40,887 nt of DNA from an uncultured Enterobacterales bacterium (GTDB lineage Bacteria > Myxococcota_A > UBA796): the NCBI GenBank assembly GCA_964554315.1, contig CAZKOI010000004.1, forward strand, positions 1 to 40,887. Reading direction: 5' to 3'. Both the position numbers and the translations under genes were made by a program. The notes under the pieces are model-generated. The model worked only from the letters and a program-made list of their open reading frames with translations, had not been told where the DNA came from and searched no databases. Positions 28,653-33,685 of this stretch are shown here, piece after piece (the first letter of the stretch is position 1; each line of letters opens with the position of its first letter).

Positions 28653-29084
28653 ATGAAGATTGCTTTATTGGGGCTTATCGTCGCGAGTGGCTGCGGCAGT
28701 GCTGCCGACGACACCCACAGCATGCATCACGACCACGGCGACTCCACCCTGCCGGAGGACTTCGACGATTCCACAGAGAAGACCACCGCATCGGGGATCC
28801 TGGTGACCTACAGCACGGCACCCAATCCCCCTGTGGAGTCCGAGGAATTCAGCGTCATCCTCTCGCACAGCGGCGGTACCATCGTCGCGGTTGATGCGGC
28901 GATGCCAACCCACGGCGGTCACGGAATGAACGTCACTCCTCGCCTGGAGGACGACGGAACGGGAACCGTTGTTGTGAGTCCCTTTCAGTTTCACATGCCG
29001 GGCTATTGGGAGATGGTGGTCGACCTAGAGAACGACGCGGGGCAGGAAGAGCAGGTACGGTTTGACATGGCCTGCTGTGGTTAG
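28653..29084 (+). CDS. YtkA/FixH-like lipoprotein with His/Met/Cys metal-binding motifs
   Basis: GGAGG SD; lipobox ASGC; HSMHHDHG; AMPTHGGHGM; FHMPGYWE; C-terminal MACCG. Confidence 0.78.
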   Translation: MKIALLGLIVASGCGSAADDTHSMHHDHGDSTLPEDFDDSTEKTTASGILVTYSTAPNPPVESEEFSVILSHSGGTIVAVDAAMPTHGGHGMNVTPRLEDDGTGTVVVSPFQFHMPGYWEMVVDLENDAGQEEQVRFDMACCG

Positions 29085-30348
29085 GCTCCTCCTCTTCCTC
29101 GCTCTGTGCAGCTGCGCCGCACAGGATGATGCCGCTAAACCTAGGCAGACGTTCAGCGACGCTCAGATCGAGCGTCTCCTGAGACATCGCTTCGATTCAG
29201 AGCCCGTGTGGGATGAAACCAACCGGGTCTCGGGCGACGCCGCCGCCGAGCGTCTGGGGCAGTATCTCTTCTTCGACCCTGGCCTCTCGGCATCGGGAGA
29301 GCACAGTTGCGCCACCTGCCACCAGCCCGAGCATGGATTCGCTGACCCGGAGCGGCTGTCCACGGCTGTAGGGACACTACTTCGCCACACGCCAACCATC
29401 ATCAACAGCAGCTACAATCGATGGTTTTATTGGGATGGACGCTGCGATACGCTCTGGTGCCAAGCCGCCAGCCCCATCGAAGCCGCACAAGAGCATGGCT
29501 CGAATCGACTCGCCGTTGCTCACCACATCGCGGCCGACGCTGACCTCAGCGAGGCCTACACGGCCGTTTTTGGACCGCTGCCCGACCTCAGCGACACCAC
29601 CCGATTTCCGCTCAATGCGATGCCAGCGGACGATCCTGAGGATCCACTCCACGTGGCCTGGACATCCATGACAGACGAGGATGCCTTCGCAGCAACAGAG
29701 GTGTTCATCAACATCACGAAGGCCATCGCCGCATACGAGGCGGTCCTGATCCAAGGCGATGCTCCGTTCGACCAGATGCTCGAGGCGTTCACGGCGGGCG
29801 ACGCCTCGGGGGGCTCGTCGATCAGCGAGAGCGCAAAGGTCGGCGCCAAGCTCTTTGTGGGCGAGGCCAACTGCTGGGCGTGCCACTCGGGCCCGACCTT
29901 CACGAATCGGGAGTTCCACAACGTCGCCCTGCCCGCCGTCGATGGAATCGACAACGAGAGCGCTGGTCGGTATGACGGGATCGACTCCTTGCTGGCGAAC
30001 CCATTCAACAGCAAAGGCACCTTCAGTGACGACTCTTCTGGGGCTAGCGAGAAGCTCGACCACCTGGTGCAGAGTCCCGAACAGCTCGGTGCATTCAAGA
30101 CACCGTCGCTTCGCAACCTGATGGACACCCCTCCGTACATGCACGGAGGGCACTTCGAGACACTCACCGACGTGGTCACACACTACAGCGAAATGGATGA
30201 CCCCCCAGCCGTCGGGCACCGCGAGGAAATCCTCCTGCCGCAGCTCTGGTCAGAGATGGAAATCACCCATGTCGTGGACTTCCTCGAGAGCCTGCAGGGC
30301 GCCCCTATCGACGCGCAGCTCCTCACGCAGCCCGAGAGTCCGCTCTAG
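29077..30348 (+). CDS. Dihaem cytochrome c peroxidase/MauG/MbnH-family lipoprotein
   Basis: LGQYLFFDPGLS, CATCH, RHTPT, FYWDGR, CWACH, FKTPSLRN, PPYMHGG; lipobox LCSC; start GTG 29077 or TTG 29062. Confidence 0.88.
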   Translation: MVRLLLFLALCSCAAQDDAAKPRQTFSDAQIERLLRHRFDSEPVWDETNRVSGDAAAERLGQYLFFDPGLSASGEHSCATCHQPEHGFADPERLSTAVGTLLRHTPTIINSSYNRWFYWDGRCDTLWCQAASPIEAAQEHGSNRLAVAHHIAADADLSEAYTAVFGPLPDLSDTTRFPLNAMPADDPEDPLHVAWTSMTDEDAFAATEVFINITKAIAAYEAVLIQGDAPFDQMLEAFTAGDASGGSSISESAKVGAKLFVGEANCWACHSGPTFTNREFHNVALPAVDGIDNESAGRYDGIDSLLANPFNSKGTFSDDSSGASEKLDHLVQSPEQLGAFKTPSLRNLMDTPPYMHGGHFETLTDVVTHYSEMDDPPAVGHREEILLPQLWSEMEITHVVDFLESLQGAPIDAQLLTQPESPL

Positions 30349-30941
30349 ATCTCTCGCCGATTGGTGATGGCCCGAGCCACGGAGCTTCGATCCGCGTACT
30401 CAATCTCTGTTCCAACCGAGATGCCGTGCGCCAAACGGGTCACCTTCACATCGAGGGGGCCGAGAAGCTTCGAGAGATAGAGTGCGGTGGCATCGCCTTC
30501 GACATCGGGGTCGGTGGCGATGATGACCTCCGTGACAGTCCCCTTGCCGACGCGCTCAAGCAAGGAGCCGATGTTGAGCTCGTCCGGACCCACTCCGTCC
30601 AGCGGGGCGATGGCGCCACCCAACACATGATAGCGACCACCGAACTCCCCCGCTGCCTCGATCGCCTTCACATCCTGCGGTCGCTCGACGACGCAGATCA
30701 GACCGGTTTCCCGCCTCGGGTCTGCACACATTGGGCAAGGATCTACGGCGGAGACATCACCGCATACGGTACAGCGCAGCATCGCGGCGGGCAATGCGGT
30801 GAGCGCGGCCCCAATCTCAGCGGAGACCTCCGGCGGCTGTCTCAGCAGCCAATAGACCAGGCGAGTCGCACTCCGCTCGCCCACGCCCGGAAACCGCTTC
30901 AGCTGAGCGATGGCCATCTTGAGGGGGTCGACCGTTTCCAT
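30345..30941 (-). CDS. recR: Recombination mediator RecR
   Basis: FPGVGERSATR, C4 zinc finger (CTVC...CPMC), ICVVE, YHVLGG, EVIIATDPDVEGDATA, TRLAHG. Confidence 0.96.
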   Translation of the reverse strand: METVDPLKMAIAQLKRFPGVGERSATRLVYWLLRQPPEVSAEIGAALTALPAAMLRCTVCGDVSAVDPCPMCADPRRETGLICVVERPQDVKAIEAAGEFGGRYHVLGGAIAPLDGVGPDELNIGSLLERVGKGTVTEVIIATDPDVEGDATALYLSKLLGPLDVKVTRLAHGISVGTEIEYADRSSVARAITNRREI

Positions 30942-31621
30942 CAGTCAATCTCCTCCGGCGAGAGCACCGGTGGGGTGGGTGCGCGATGGTCTCGGTGGAC
31001 GGACCGGATCGCTGCGTCAAAGTAAGCCACAAGAGTGGTGATGTCCGTGTCCTGGGCGATCCGTTCCTCAAGCACACGCTGAGCCTCTGCGGCTTCGTGG
31101 GCGAGGGTCTCACGATGAGTCAGCCGTTCACTGTCTTCGGCGCGTCGGAGCACAGACACGGAGGCACAGCCCGGAAAGAAGCCCTGTACACCAGCAAGGA
31201 GTCGTGGATCACGGTTCGTCGCACTCACATGATTCGCCCGAAATCCCTCTGGGAACTCCAGCCTCAGCACCGGTGGGCTCACACTCACAAAGATGCAGTC
31301 CTTTGCCCATACCTCGTAGCGGGGACCACCCGCCTCAAGCCATGCCCGAAAGGCGCCGAAGCGTTGCTCATCAGACCAGTCCTCGGGAATGTCAGGAATC
31401 GCATCCGGATCAGCCTCGACAGGCTCGTCTTCCTCGGCAGGGCTAGCCGCTTCGACGGAAGGCTGCTCAGCGGGGTCCTCGGCAGGGCGCATCGACACCG
31501 CCGCGATCTGCTCAGGTGGTGCACCCCCCTGTGAGGGCGCCTCCTCTGGTCGCGGCGCTGGCGGAGGCGGCAGTGACTCCGGCTCGAACACAGCCTCCGA
31601 AGACGCCTGCGCCCCGTCTAT
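30941..31621 (-). CDS. dnaX: DnaX (tau) C-terminal part: Pro/acidic linker plus domain V-like region, in the -1/+2 frame relative to the dnaX core
   Basis: Frame is open from the TGA at 31642-31640; W...F..WL, VLRLEF, DTDITTLVAYFDAAIRSV resemble tau C-termini; TGATG coupling to recR; start uncertain (ATA 31621, GTG 31591, or frameshift). Confidence 0.72.
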   Translation of the reverse strand: MDGAQASSEAVFEPESLPPPPAPRPEEAPSQGGAPPEQIAAVSMRPAEDPAEQPSVEAASPAEEDEPVEADPDAIPDIPEDWSDEQRFGAFRAWLEAGGPRYEVWAKDCIFVSVSPPVLRLEFPEGFRANHVSATNRDPRLLAGVQGFFPGCASVSVLRRAEDSERLTHRETLAHEAAEAQRVLEERIAQDTDITTLVAYFDAAIRSVHRDHRAPTPPVLSPEEID

Positions 31622-32847
31622 AGAGACGGCTCCTTGTCGTCAGAGGTCGACCGAGGCGTGGCTCCTTTACGCGGGGGCGGAAGGGCAATTCCTCCCGCGT
31701 CGCGGATGCGCTGCTCCAGATCATCGAGGCGATGCAAGAGGCGATCGATGGGCTGAGCAGGGCGTATGCTGACCAGGCGAGCGACCGCCATCTCGAGCAC
31801 AAGGCGAGGCCTGTTGGACCGTGCCACCTGGTCATGAACATCGAGCATGACGTGGAATGCTCGAACCAGCACATCCGTGTGGCTCCGCTTGACCAAGGCC
31901 TCCAGTCGCTCACGCTCATCCGCTGGCACGTCGAGGTACTCTCTCGAGCGTGGGCTGAGCCCAACCAAGGTGGCGTTCCTGAGCAATGTCAGCATCTCAG
32001 CCGTGAACTCTGAGAGCTCAAAACCGTAGCCGTAGACGGCATCTATAGACTGTAGGCAACCATCCGCATTGGCATCTAGAATGCCCTCAAGCATCTGGTA
32101 GAGGAAGGCGCGATCGACGAGCCCGAGAATGTCCGACACCTGCTCCTTAGTTGGCTGCTCGCCCGCAAAGCTGATGACTTGATCGAGAAGACTCTGAGAG
32201 TCTCTCATCGAGCCTTCGCCCGCACGCGCGATGAGACGAAGCGCATCCTCACCAATCTGAACCCCCTCTGCCGCCGCAATGTGCCCGAGGCGAGCGATCA
32301 CGACATCGGGCGGAATACGCTTGAAGTCAAAGCGCTGCACCCTCGACAGGATCGTATCGGGGATACGCTGGGGCTCCGTCGTCGCAAACATGAAGACCAC
32401 GCTCGGCGGAGGCTCTTCGAGCGTCTTCAGCAGCGCATTGAACGCACCCTTGGACAGCATGTGGACCTCGTCCACGATGTAGACCTTGGACTTGCCATGG
32501 ACGGGCATGTACCGAACGCTCTCACGGAGCTCCCGAATGTCGTCCACCGAGTTGTTGGAGGCCCCGTCTATCTCAATCACATCGGGGCTCGACCCGGCAA
32601 GAATCTCCGTGCAACTGGCGCACTCCCCACAGGGCTCCGGCGTGGGGCCATCGACACAGTTGAGCGCTCGTGCAAGGGCGCGGGCAGCGGTGGTCTTACC
32701 CACACCTCTGGGCCCAGAGAACAGGAAGGCGTGATGGACCCGACCCAGCGCGATCGCATTGCGGAGGGTACGGGTCACGTGAGTCTGACCCGCGATCTCG
32801 TCAAATGTAGTAGGGCGCCACTTTCGGGCGATGGCCTGGTACGTCAT
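31618..32847 (-). CDS. dnaX: DNA polymerase III gamma/tau, N-terminal clamp-loader domains I-III (409 aa)
   Basis: ARKWRPTTF, GPRGVGKTT Walker A, zinc module CGECASC, EIDGAS, IVDEVHMLS, LLKTLEEPP, TILSRVQRF, GSMRD. Confidence 0.96.
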   Translation of the reverse strand: MTYQAIARKWRPTTFDEIAGQTHVTRTLRNAIALGRVHHAFLFSGPRGVGKTTAARALARALNCVDGPTPEPCGECASCTEILAGSSPDVIEIDGASNNSVDDIRELRESVRYMPVHGKSKVYIVDEVHMLSKGAFNALLKTLEEPPPSVVFMFATTEPQRIPDTILSRVQRFDFKRIPPDVVIARLGHIAAAEGVQIGEDALRLIARAGEGSMRDSQSLLDQVISFAGEQPTKEQVSDILGLVDRAFLYQMLEGILDANADGCLQSIDAVYGYGFELSEFTAEMLTLLRNATLVGLSPRSREYLDVPADERERLEALVKRSHTDVLVRAFHVMLDVHDQVARSNRPRLVLEMAVARLVSIRPAQPIDRLLHRLDDLEQRIRDAGGIALPPPRKGATPRSTSDDKEPSL

Positions 32848-32862
32848 GGCAGTCCCGTAACT

Positions 32863-32886
32863 GAAAAAGAGGCCCCAGGTGATGGC

Positions 32887-32887
<1 letters not shown>
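32863..32887 (-). terminator. Possible weak terminator/processing hairpin between ffs and dnaX
   Basis: Minus strand GGCC-ATCACCTGG-GGCC followed by TCTTTTTC. Confidence 0.4.
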
Positions 32888-32973
<86 letters not shown>

Positions 32974-33006
32974 ACCACCACCTTGGGCCGCGCACAATGG
33001 CGCAAA

Positions 33007-33094
33007 TGGCGGAGAGAGTGGGATTCGAACCCACGGTAGGTTGCCCTACACTCGCGTTCCAGGCGAGCACCTTCGTCCACTCGGTCATCTCTCC
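33007..33094 (-). tRNA. tRNA-Ser(GGA)
   Basis: GGAGAGA acceptor, anticodon arm CTCGC-CTGGAAC-GCGAG, long variable arm, GTTCGAATC, encoded GCCA. Confidence 0.96.
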
Positions 33095-33211: not shown

Positions 33212-33685
33212 TTACTTCTTGGCTCGCACACGCCGAAAGAATGTCCGGAGCGTATCGGCAGCCTCATCCGCCCGAACACCGGATGTGACCTCAAACCGAT
33301 GGTTTAGCACCGGATGGCTTGAGAGGTCGCCGAGTGTACCCAGGAAGCCCCCGCGGGGATCCGTCGCTGCATAGACACAGCGTGGAACGCGAGCATTGAC
33401 CATCAGGCCTGCACACATCGCACAGGGCTCTAAGGTCACGTAGACTGTGCAGCCTTCGAGACGCCAGTCACCGAGCGTTCGGGCGGCCTCTCGCATGGCG
33501 ATAAACTCCGCATGAGCCGAAGGATCACCGTCCACCTCGCGGCGGTTGTGAGCCGAACTGATGACCTTGCCCTCATGCACGACGACCGCCCCAACGGGAA
33601 CTTCACCCATCTCAGCCGCTGCGTGGGCCTGTGCAAGCGCCAGGTCCATGAAGTGCAGGTCCTCAGTTAGAACCATTTTGTCCAT
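33212..33685 (-). CDS. tadA: tRNA adenosine(34) deaminase TadA
   Basis: GEVPVGAV, DPSAHAE, YVTLEPCAMCAG, LNHR, FFRRVR. Confidence 0.94.
   Translation of the reverse strand: MDKMVLTEDLHFMDLALAQAHAAAEMGEVPVGAVVVHEGKVISSAHNRREVDGDPSAHAEFIAMREAARTLGDWRLEGCTVYVTLEPCAMCAGLMVNARVPRCVYAATDPRGGFLGTLGDLSSHPVLNHRFEVTSGVRADEAADTLRTFFRRVRAKK

Follow-up and report, generated by a model that had tools for sequence, protein, structure and literature searches.

A two-frame dnaX gene in a marine myxobacterium and a conserved Shine-Dalgarno signal that probably directs +2 ribosomal frameshifting

The stretch of DNA analysed here (the window) comprises the 40,887 nucleotides of contig CAZKOI010000004.1 (GenBank assembly GCA_964554315.1), which belongs to a metagenome-assembled genome (MAG) of a marine myxobacterium (G000). 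Its dnaX, the gene of the gamma and tau subunits of the replicase, is divided over two open reading frames (ORFs), of which the second, ORF2, lies in the -1/+2 frame relative to the first, ORF1. The gene is read, with a probability of about 0.6, as a two-ORF gene decoded by programmed ribosomal frameshifting, most likely by +2 re-pairing of a tRNA driven by an internal Shine-Dalgarno (SD) sequence. Recoding of one kind or another is considered very probable, and the odds for a +2 re-pairing specifically are put slightly above even. From sequence comparison we infer that the shift is ribosomal and that it is +2 rather than -1; its efficiency is judged on the same basis.

According to the proposed scheme, standard decoding would give a gamma-like clamp-loader subunit of 409 amino acids, ending at a TAG one codon after the shift site, and a fraction of the ribosomes would enter the -1/+2 frame within AAG GAG CCG UCU CUA UAG, yielding a tau of about 634 amino acids with the polymerase- and helicase-binding C-terminus. 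The event would begin with tRNA-Ser(GGA) paired to UCU in the P site, while the A site, over the rare CUA codon, is still empty. The internal AAGGAG, 3 nt upstream, would then pair with 16S rRNA and strain the complex forward; tRNA-Ser would un-pair, re-pair two bases downstream on the overlapping UCU, and decoding would resume at AUA to give ...KEPS-IDGAQ.... In a second family (f7, see below), it would be tRNA-Glu that re-pairs, at a GAG at +2.

An earlier note on this DNA, made from its letters alone, had described the junction, and all the coordinates that it gave proved correct: the dnaX core ends at its TAG, the tail lies in the -1/+2 frame and is open only past a TGA upstream, there is no A-run, and the SD stands 3 nt before a UCU that is repeated at +2 (Table 1). 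Its presumption that CUA is rare was also right, as CTA makes up 3.2% and TTA 0.8% of the Leu codons in the window; TCT accounts for 10% of the Ser codons, and CCG, with 31% of the Pro codons, is common. CTA or TTA is retained in all four lineages that have the junction type of the window. No A or T run of at least five was found in the dnaX region, and no X XXY YYZ heptamer in the ORF1 frame or in the shift window. The pattern AAGGAG-NNN-TCYYY occurs 16 times in the genome, and a switch of ORF accompanies it at dnaX only.

Constraint on the signal at the nucleotide level was seen in an alignment of 20 sequences of the genus, split and continuous forms together, in which AAGGAG-NNN-TCY is invariant at synonymous sites throughout (20/20). 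The junction Lys is AAG and the junction Glu GAG in every sequence, whereas each of the other eight invariant Glu columns contains 1-12 GAA. The junction Ser is TCT in 14 sequences and TCC in six, never TCR or AGY; other invariant Ser columns of the TCN type are mainly TCG and TCC. The spacer codon is free to vary in relatives (CCG, CCT, CCA, CCC, GAA, TCG, TCA). Across the genome, 623 of 1156 K-E dipeptides (54%) are encoded by AAGGAG, an observed/expected ratio of 0.75, and no other SD-like pentamer was found in the 48 nt upstream of the signal in 18 of 19 distinct sequences. The earlier note had looked to relatives for conservation of the frame break and of SD-NNN-TCT-CTA-TAG. The break recurs (13/32 loci), as does AAGGAG-NNN-TCY, but the CTA-TAG part varies among lineages. 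A second AAGGAGCC, which it had pointed out upstream, is present at 31667-31660, though only in the lineage of the window (1 of 19 distinct sequences).

A split dnaX was found in 13 of 32 related contigs (L034-L037, L042, L044, L046, L048, L053, L054, L057, L061, L062), always into the -1 frame and directly after KEPS. The 32 loci were drawn from metagenome and genome collections, and some of them are G001, G002, G004, G005 or near-copies of one another; the distinct split junction sequences number about 11. Thirteen loci are in frame past the junction (L038, L043, L045, L047, L049, L050, L052, L055, L056, L058, L063-L065; the frame of L065 runs on to its contig end) and four are continuous over it until a contig end or gap (L039, L041, L059, L060). 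Two were dropped from the count, L040 because its sequence does not reach the junction and L051 because this contig of 1.1 kb has its stop at a different place, inside domain III. Among the other genomes of the genus, two of five (G002 and G005) have the split at this position, into the -1 frame, G003 has a continuous dnaX of 685 amino acids, and G001 and G004 are continuous over the junction before a contig end or N gap. In the family of the window, outside the genus, all nine matched genomes have a continuous dnaX of 621-817 amino acids.

Every one of the 13 split loci has a zero-frame stop (TAG, TAA or TGA) 1-3 codons past the Ser codon, with the tails KEPSL*, KEPSLRS*, KEPSPGR*, KEPSPAR*, KEPSPAS*, KEPSP* and KEPSPVA*; the zero frame is otherwise open for at least 30 codons, for example in L034, L036, L042 and L061. 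When the stops of all lineages are combined, a shared shift site is limited to C AAG GAG CCN TCY plus one codon. In L037 (2085-2110) a second AAGGAG was observed inside the shift window (AAG GAG CCG TCT CTA AGG AGC TAA), so that the AAG GAG pair repeats 14 nt downstream in the -1 frame.

A stop is present in the continuous relatives as well (9/9): it lies in the -1 frame, 3-7 codons beyond the landing codon. In eight of the nine it reads NNT GAR, with the T retained in different codons (GCT three times, GTT twice, ACT, AGT and CCT once each), and the share of T at third codon positions (T3) in these genes is 0.22-0.31. A -1 stop that near is met at 15-35% of positions per gene and the lineages are related, and the conserved stop is regarded as supportive, not decisive. 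At the same site the continuous relatives would yield gamma by shifting, the topology of E. coli. In the PSPAR/PSPGR group the same TGA stands one base further on and is therefore in frame; a one-base indel (mod 3) between site and stop would thus make the two products trade roles. In N-part trees, three groups of split forms emerge that match the three junction types, and a single split clade was rejected by the approximately unbiased (AU) test (p = 0.0038 with 1179 columns; p = 0.016 with 552 columns), the tested group having been named after the first tree was seen and the deep branches being unresolved. Because a single clade is rejected, the split or continuous state appears to have changed more than once. 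According to Atkins et al. (2016; PMC5009743), two-ORF and E. coli-type dnaX are interchangeable by a small indel with a flip of roles, and the multiple split groups fit the flip described there. In another genus of the same family, L028 and L065 are continuous and read AAG GAG CCT CTT CCC CGT AGG, with a -1 TAG four codons past the SD-like hexamer. The arrangement of SD and early stop may be older than the genus.

An analogous signal was found in family f7, which belongs to the same order. When the whole order was searched with the N-part, 142 of 151 genomes matched, and short N-part frames were seen throughout f7 (25 of 30 matched genomes examined; split loci L066-L070, L072-L077, L086-L091, L093-L099). 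In 24 of the 25, ...PEGER... is encoded as GGAGG-NN-GAG-AG(G/T), with the stop 0-2 codons on and the C-part in the -1 frame. GAGAG offers an identical GAG at +2. The next residue alternates between Arg (AGG) and Ser (AGT) with AG retained; in f7 genes AGG makes up 2.1% of 972 Arg codons and AGT 3.2% of the Ser codons. In L067 and L076 a -1 TGA lies right before the +2 GAG, which restricts the shift to GAG AGG TAG. The C-parts of f7 (alignment A2) match those of the genus weakly (hhalign probability 64%, E = 6e-5). In both signals a GGAG ends 3 nt before the P-site codon, that codon or a synonym read by the same tRNA recurs at +2, and the zero frame soon meets a stop; the A-site codon is rare in the junction type of the window and in f7. 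The f7 signal is an independent parallel to that of the genus. The elements on which the earlier note had built its frameshift model (SD spacing, +2 repeat and rare CUA) are thus backed by the comparison of genus and f7.

With regard to direction, a review gives the spacing of stimulatory SD sequences as 3 nt for +1 sites and 9-14 nt for -1 sites, and a spacing of 3 nt therefore points forward. Re-pairing at +1 is impossible in both signals (CUC in the genus, AGA in f7), whereas at +2 it is perfect (UCU and GAG, respectively). Taken together, the spacing, the perfect +2 re-pairing and the impossible +1 favour an SD-driven +2 re-pairing. A landing on UCC after take-off from UCU, by wobble, fits re-pairing of a tRNA and not realignment of RNA polymerase.

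Several observations weigh against this reading. In L035 (UCU UUA, landing UUU) and in L046, L057 and L061 (UCC CCG, landing CCC) the +2 re-pairing is imperfect, and none of the seven TCC-type sequences lands on a Ser codon (the landing is CCC or CCA); the poorly pairing lineages could slip -1 on U UUA or C CCG instead. Rare codons occupy the A site in the window (CUA), in L035 (UUA) and in f7 (AGG, AGU), but junctions of the CCG type have the common CCG there. One f7 genome (G052, locus L092) has GAC AGG TAG, no GAGAG, and its C-part in the +1 frame. The Lys-Glu pair encoded by AAGGAG is part of an acidic motif conserved across the family, so that part of its conservation reflects the protein. 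Folding of the 70 nt after the Ser codon in 20 loci revealed no 3' stimulatory structure (z from -0.92 to +1.63, with 100 mononucleotide shuffles per locus), and no hairpin at that place is conserved among the 20. The 16S rRNA gene was not found in the MAG, where a search for the 13-nt motif of the 16S tail gave one match at an unrelated place, and the anti-SD is therefore assumed. Furthermore, all the sequences are MAGs or metagenome contigs, and the frameshift-review literature, in the parts available, yielded no utilised natural +2 frameshift.

An unconventional -1 ribosomal event would place the C-part in the same frame. Here, the tRNA that slips back one base would be the one paired with the codon next after Ser (CUA, UUA or CCG), or an A-site tRNA would bind out of frame, in which case the product would have one extra residue. 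The -1 shift is by far the commoner route into that frame according to the review, and U UUA (L035) and C CCG (L046, L057, L061) pair well just where +2 is poor. In the window, however, moving from U CUA to UCU offers no cognate -1 re-pairing, the f7 equivalent (AGG to GAG) gives pairing at only two positions out of three, and slipping back by one base would bring the GAG tRNA onto TGA in L067 and L076. In addition, there is neither an X XXY YYZ sequence nor a 3' structure (20 loci), and the SD lies 3-6 nt upstream rather than 9-14 nt. A -1 event is consequently regarded as unlikely.

Without recoding, ORF2 could be a free tau C-terminal protein, made by termination and re-initiation at AUA, as in the second model of the earlier note, or from an internal GTG at 31591, with AAGGAG as ribosome-binding site. 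AAGGAG does stand 8 nt before the ATA, and the ATAG overlaps the stop; GTGA, TTGATG or CTGA overlaps occur in L042/L044/L062, L054, L046, L057 and L061, and in coupled genes, according to the review, an SD is often found before the stop. The -1 codon over the stop varies, however: it is ATA (L034-L036), CTA (L037), GTA (L048, L053) or CTG (L057, L061), and the canonical GTG (L042/L044/L062, L054) or TTG (L046) elsewhere. A canonical start overlaps the stop in three of eight junction types and five of 13 split loci (L042/L044/L062, L046, L054), and in lineages with a TGA stop a canonical NTG is found in three of four, about the expectation from base composition. By this comparison, no start codon is conserved at the junction. 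The first ATG, GTG or TTG past the stop lies at 179 nt in L037, 89 in L048, 74 in L053, 38 in L061, 29 in L034 and L035, and 23 in L057. In L037, L048 and L053 there is no start for 25-60 codons (60 open codons in L037, including an EVP repeat), although the frame is open and coding-like there (codon-position GC 0.78/0.54/0.63). In f7, the nearest canonical start is 14-119 nt past the stop, with none nearer in 11 of 11 genomes checked. Nor are the conserved -1 stop and the synonymous constraint in continuous relatives explained in this way. By what is established for E. coli tau, a C-terminal fragment untethered from the clamp-loader core would be unable to link polymerase and helicase with the loader. 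Re-initiation is hence disfavoured, and seems a shade more doubtful even than a -1 event.

It has further to be considered whether RNA polymerase skips two bases, or adds one, at UCUCU or GAGAG, so that tau is translated from an edited mRNA. Transcriptional slippage is the mechanism presumed for Thermus and the known two-ORF dnaX genes, and UCUCU and GAGAG each amount to 2.5 dinucleotide repeats. There is, however, no homopolymer of at least five; the sequence in many lineages is UCUCC, UCCCC or UCUUU, none of them a nucleic-acid repeat; the metatranscriptome contig described below equals the DNA, though contigs mask minor variants; and the rare A-site codons and the SD would be left without a role. 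This explanation is considered very improbable.

The break itself was checked against public data, in which part of the stretch is present in 20 of 24 listed runs. Contigs of four runs from four studies, aligned over 31000-32200, showed zero indels, so that the indel over the junction for which the earlier note had wanted reads examined is not seen in them. The X1 contig covers the whole interval with 4 substitutions, the X5 contig covers 31530-32200, and the X9 contig, from a metatranscriptome, covers 31510-31738 and is identical to the DNA across the site; the X2 contig (31497-31647) has just 27 nt on one side of the stop and was not counted as bridging. The comparison used contigs, in which rare variants would stay hidden. 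The frame break is not an assembly artefact, and its recurrence in related contigs and in other genomes of the genus goes beyond chance. An assembly indel or a recent inactivating lesion (pseudogene), which the state of the genome (a MAG of 672 contigs with 6% contamination) and the repeat-rich linker adjoining the junction, with contig breaks and an N gap there in relatives, might have suggested, is refuted as far as present data go and has next to no probability, since the same junction stands in four independent assemblies, the break is common to many species-level lineages with saturated synonymous divergence (dS) and a low ratio of non-synonymous to synonymous rates (dN/dS) in the C-part, and no second full dnaX was found in the genome, only a clamp-loader paralogue, 35% identical. 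The Pro/Glu-rich repeat linker after the junction breaks assemblies elsewhere, with a gap of 359 N in G004 (L002/L023/L059) and contig ends at the same linker in G001 (L003/L020) and G005 (L006/L017).

ORF2 consists of a proline/glutamate-rich linker and a conserved domain of about 150 amino acids. The earlier note had called it tau-like, and it does align to the C-termini of continuous DnaX frames of 643-817 amino acids in relatives, with 42% identity to the 685-residue DnaX of G003 over residues 15-230. Among 10 complete split C-parts, dN/dS was 0.06-0.30 in 16 of 45 pairs, the other 29 pairs being saturated in dS, which indicates that the C-part is under purifying selection and functional. 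Searches of ORF2 gave zero Pfam matches and no match at E <= 1 in a profile search of the PDB. Its structure model has a predicted local distance difference test score (pLDDT) of 71.7, and Foldseek returned nothing for it at E <= 0.001 (5fkv_E at E = 0.14). With VIA-align, the model was superposed on the C-terminal domain of E. coli tau (5fku_E) with Z 5.5 and a root mean square deviation of 2.9 over 103 residues, a middling score at rank 4; DnaA domain I outscores tau (Z 7.0).

ORF1 matches DNA_pol3_delta2 (PF13177, 4e-45), DNAX_ATPase_lid (PF22608, 9.8e-15) and DNA_pol3_gamma3 (PF12169, 1.1e-24) in Pfam, and is the DnaX N-terminal AAA+ module with lid and domain III. The frame of ORF2 is open from 31639 to its stop, which overlaps the ATG of recR (30941-30939) as TGATG, as the earlier note had said. 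No ybaB/ebfC-like gene lies between dnaX and recR in the window, recR following directly on the tau C-part. On the 5' side of dnaX, tRNA-Ser(GGA) and the signal recognition particle (SRP) RNA are accompanied by tRNA-Ser(CGA). The earlier note had linked tRNA-Ser(GGA) to the shift; the gene is indeed present upstream, but its anticodon loop is of the ordinary 7 nt (ARAGORN) and lends no support, and an explanation by a special tRNA was dropped for this reason. The cognate reader of CUA, tRNA-Leu(UAG), is not among the 35 tRNA genes found in the incomplete MAG; tRNAs for Asp, His, Lys and Phe are missing too, so that its absence is uninformative and serves as a lead. The flanking genes encode a protein of the zinc-dependent nucleoside/tRNA deaminase family (33212-33685, minus strand; PF14437 3.6e-36, PF00383 2e-29) and a di-haem cytochrome c peroxidase (29062-30348, plus strand; PF03150 3.5e-36).

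Table 1. Features of the dnaX junction and its surroundings in the window
Feature	Position	Strand	Remarks
TGA closing the -1 frame upstream	31642-31640	-	5' limit of the shift window
AAGGAG, SD-like	31635-31630	-	encodes Lys-Glu; proposed stimulator; from sequence
Spacer codon CCG	31629-31627	-	3 nt; from sequence
UCUCU	31626-31622	-	take-off UCU 31626-31624; identical landing UCU at +2, 31624-31622
CUA, rare Leu codon	31623-31621	-	in A site when UCU is in P site; from sequence
TAG stop of ORF1 (gamma terminator)	31620-31618	-	one codon past the shift codon
dnaX ORF1	32847..31618	-	gamma-like core, domains I-III, 409 aa; ends ...TSDDKEPSL + TAG (ORF list)
ORF2, tau C-terminal part	30941..31624	-	227 codons from landing codon; TGA 30943-30941
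recR	30345..30941	-	ORF list; Pfam RecR/Toprim domains
SRP RNA (ffs)	32881..32976	-	directly 5' of dnaX; Rfam RF00169, 58.8 bits
tRNA-Ser(GGA)	33007..33094	-	UCU/UCC reader; same gene cluster, 5' of dnaX; ARAGORN

Split frames of other kinds were observed elsewhere in the order. In family f4, L078, L085 and L105 have dnaX N-part frames of 408-493 amino acids and a C-part in the -1 frame, at a different site: a run of six A (AAA AAA CCN) in L078 and L085, the genome of the latter being one 9.4-Mb contig, and a G GGA AAA heptamer in L105. These three are probably classical A-run or -1 two-ORF dnaX genes. In family f6, the N-part of L083 (G098) and L102 (G086) ends early in mid-contig, with a C-part-like ORF in the +1 frame in the former and in the -1 frame in the latter. 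Short N-part frames in f2, f3, f4 and f6 were left unscored where they run into contig ends (L071, L079-L082 and L084, 6/20; L100, L101, L103 and L104, 4/20).

Two-ORF dnaX genes that need recoding for tau have been listed in 17 cases from 12 genera, 12 of the 17 with runs of 7-10 A (Antonov et al. 2013; PMC3711429), and those with A-runs are thought to use transcriptional slippage (Antonov et al. 2013; Atkins et al. 2016). The gene described here resembles them in having two adjacent ORFs, a -1 break in the DNA, a tau that needs recoding, and conservation among relatives. It differs in that there is no run of 7-10 A; instead, an SD lies 2-3 nt before a codon that is repeated at +2 and followed by a rare codon. 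The main text of Antonov et al. (2013) gives no description of the other five of the 17 genes, and an overlap with the present clade is possible. With E. coli dnaX it shares the gene itself, two products with a common N-terminus, an internal SD as stimulator and a stop near the shift site, and the continuous relatives within the genus share its arrangement of tau in frame and a -1 stop 3-7 codons on. Unlike in E. coli, there is no A AAA AAG, the SD lies at a distance of 3 nt instead of about 10, the folded loci gave no 3' stem-loop, and in the window it is the long product, not the short one, that needs the shift.

The +1 shift of prfB, the gene of release factor 2 (RF2), is comparable in that an SD-like sequence precedes the P-site shift codon by 3 nt, as in the window and in 24 of 25 f7 genomes. 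The spacer here is one base shorter than in E. coli prfB in the anti-SD register. Furthermore, a step of +2 is needed here and not +1, as tRNA-Ser(GGA) is unable to pair with the +1 codon CUC; the part of the slow codon would fall to a rare sense codon (CUA, UUA, AGG, AGU), with the stop at least one codon later, and not to the stop itself; and no autoregulation is evident. In Thermus thermophilus, too, a single site of non-standard frame change gives rise to two DnaX products, but this needs a run of nine A, of which there is none here, and the RNA contig equals the DNA. Weiss et al. reportedly observed +2 shifts and short hops in synthetic constructs in E. coli in 1987. In such shifts and hops, as far as the available accounts go, the P-site tRNA re-pairs at a matching downstream codon and a slow A-site codon favours the event; they are, however, low-level and synthetic, whereas here a conserved utilised signal in an essential gene would be concerned. 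In a 2025 preprint, in the part available, +2 shifts appear as model predictions, and its reporters cannot separate +2 from -1. A literature search, which took in the main text of Antonov et al. (2013) as distinct from its supplements, found no recoding of dnaX in Myxococcota and no signal made of an SD and a repeated codon.

The signal would be new relative to the known A-run two-ORF dnaX and is apparently widespread in one order of Myxococcota. It is proposed more tentatively, at a little less than even odds, that it represents an undescribed conserved class of programmed +2 ribosomal frameshift in Myxococcota, in which a codon repeated at +2 (UCUCU/UCUCC; GAGAG) has an SD 2-3 nt before it and is followed by a rare A-site codon and a nearby stop. 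Such a shift would set the tau:gamma ratio of the replicase, would be efficient enough for repeated flips between tau in frame and gamma in frame, and would constitute the first case of a +2 shift utilised in nature.

Bacterial replisomes depend on tau as their essential organiser. If the frameshift reading is true, the synthesis of tau in these bacteria would depend on a frameshift at a site without classical slippery sequences. If the step is indeed +2, the mechanism of prfB would be extended to a new step size, and a natural system would be at hand to test how tension between mRNA and rRNA sets the direction and length of a shift. It would also follow that gene finders and screens keyed to A-runs or X XXY YYZ overlook a conserved recoding across a bacterial order, where dnaX is mis-annotated as a short gene and a hypothetical protein. 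The role reversal predicted for shift sites of high efficiency is clearly illustrated in nature by the mixture of split and continuous forms around one site.

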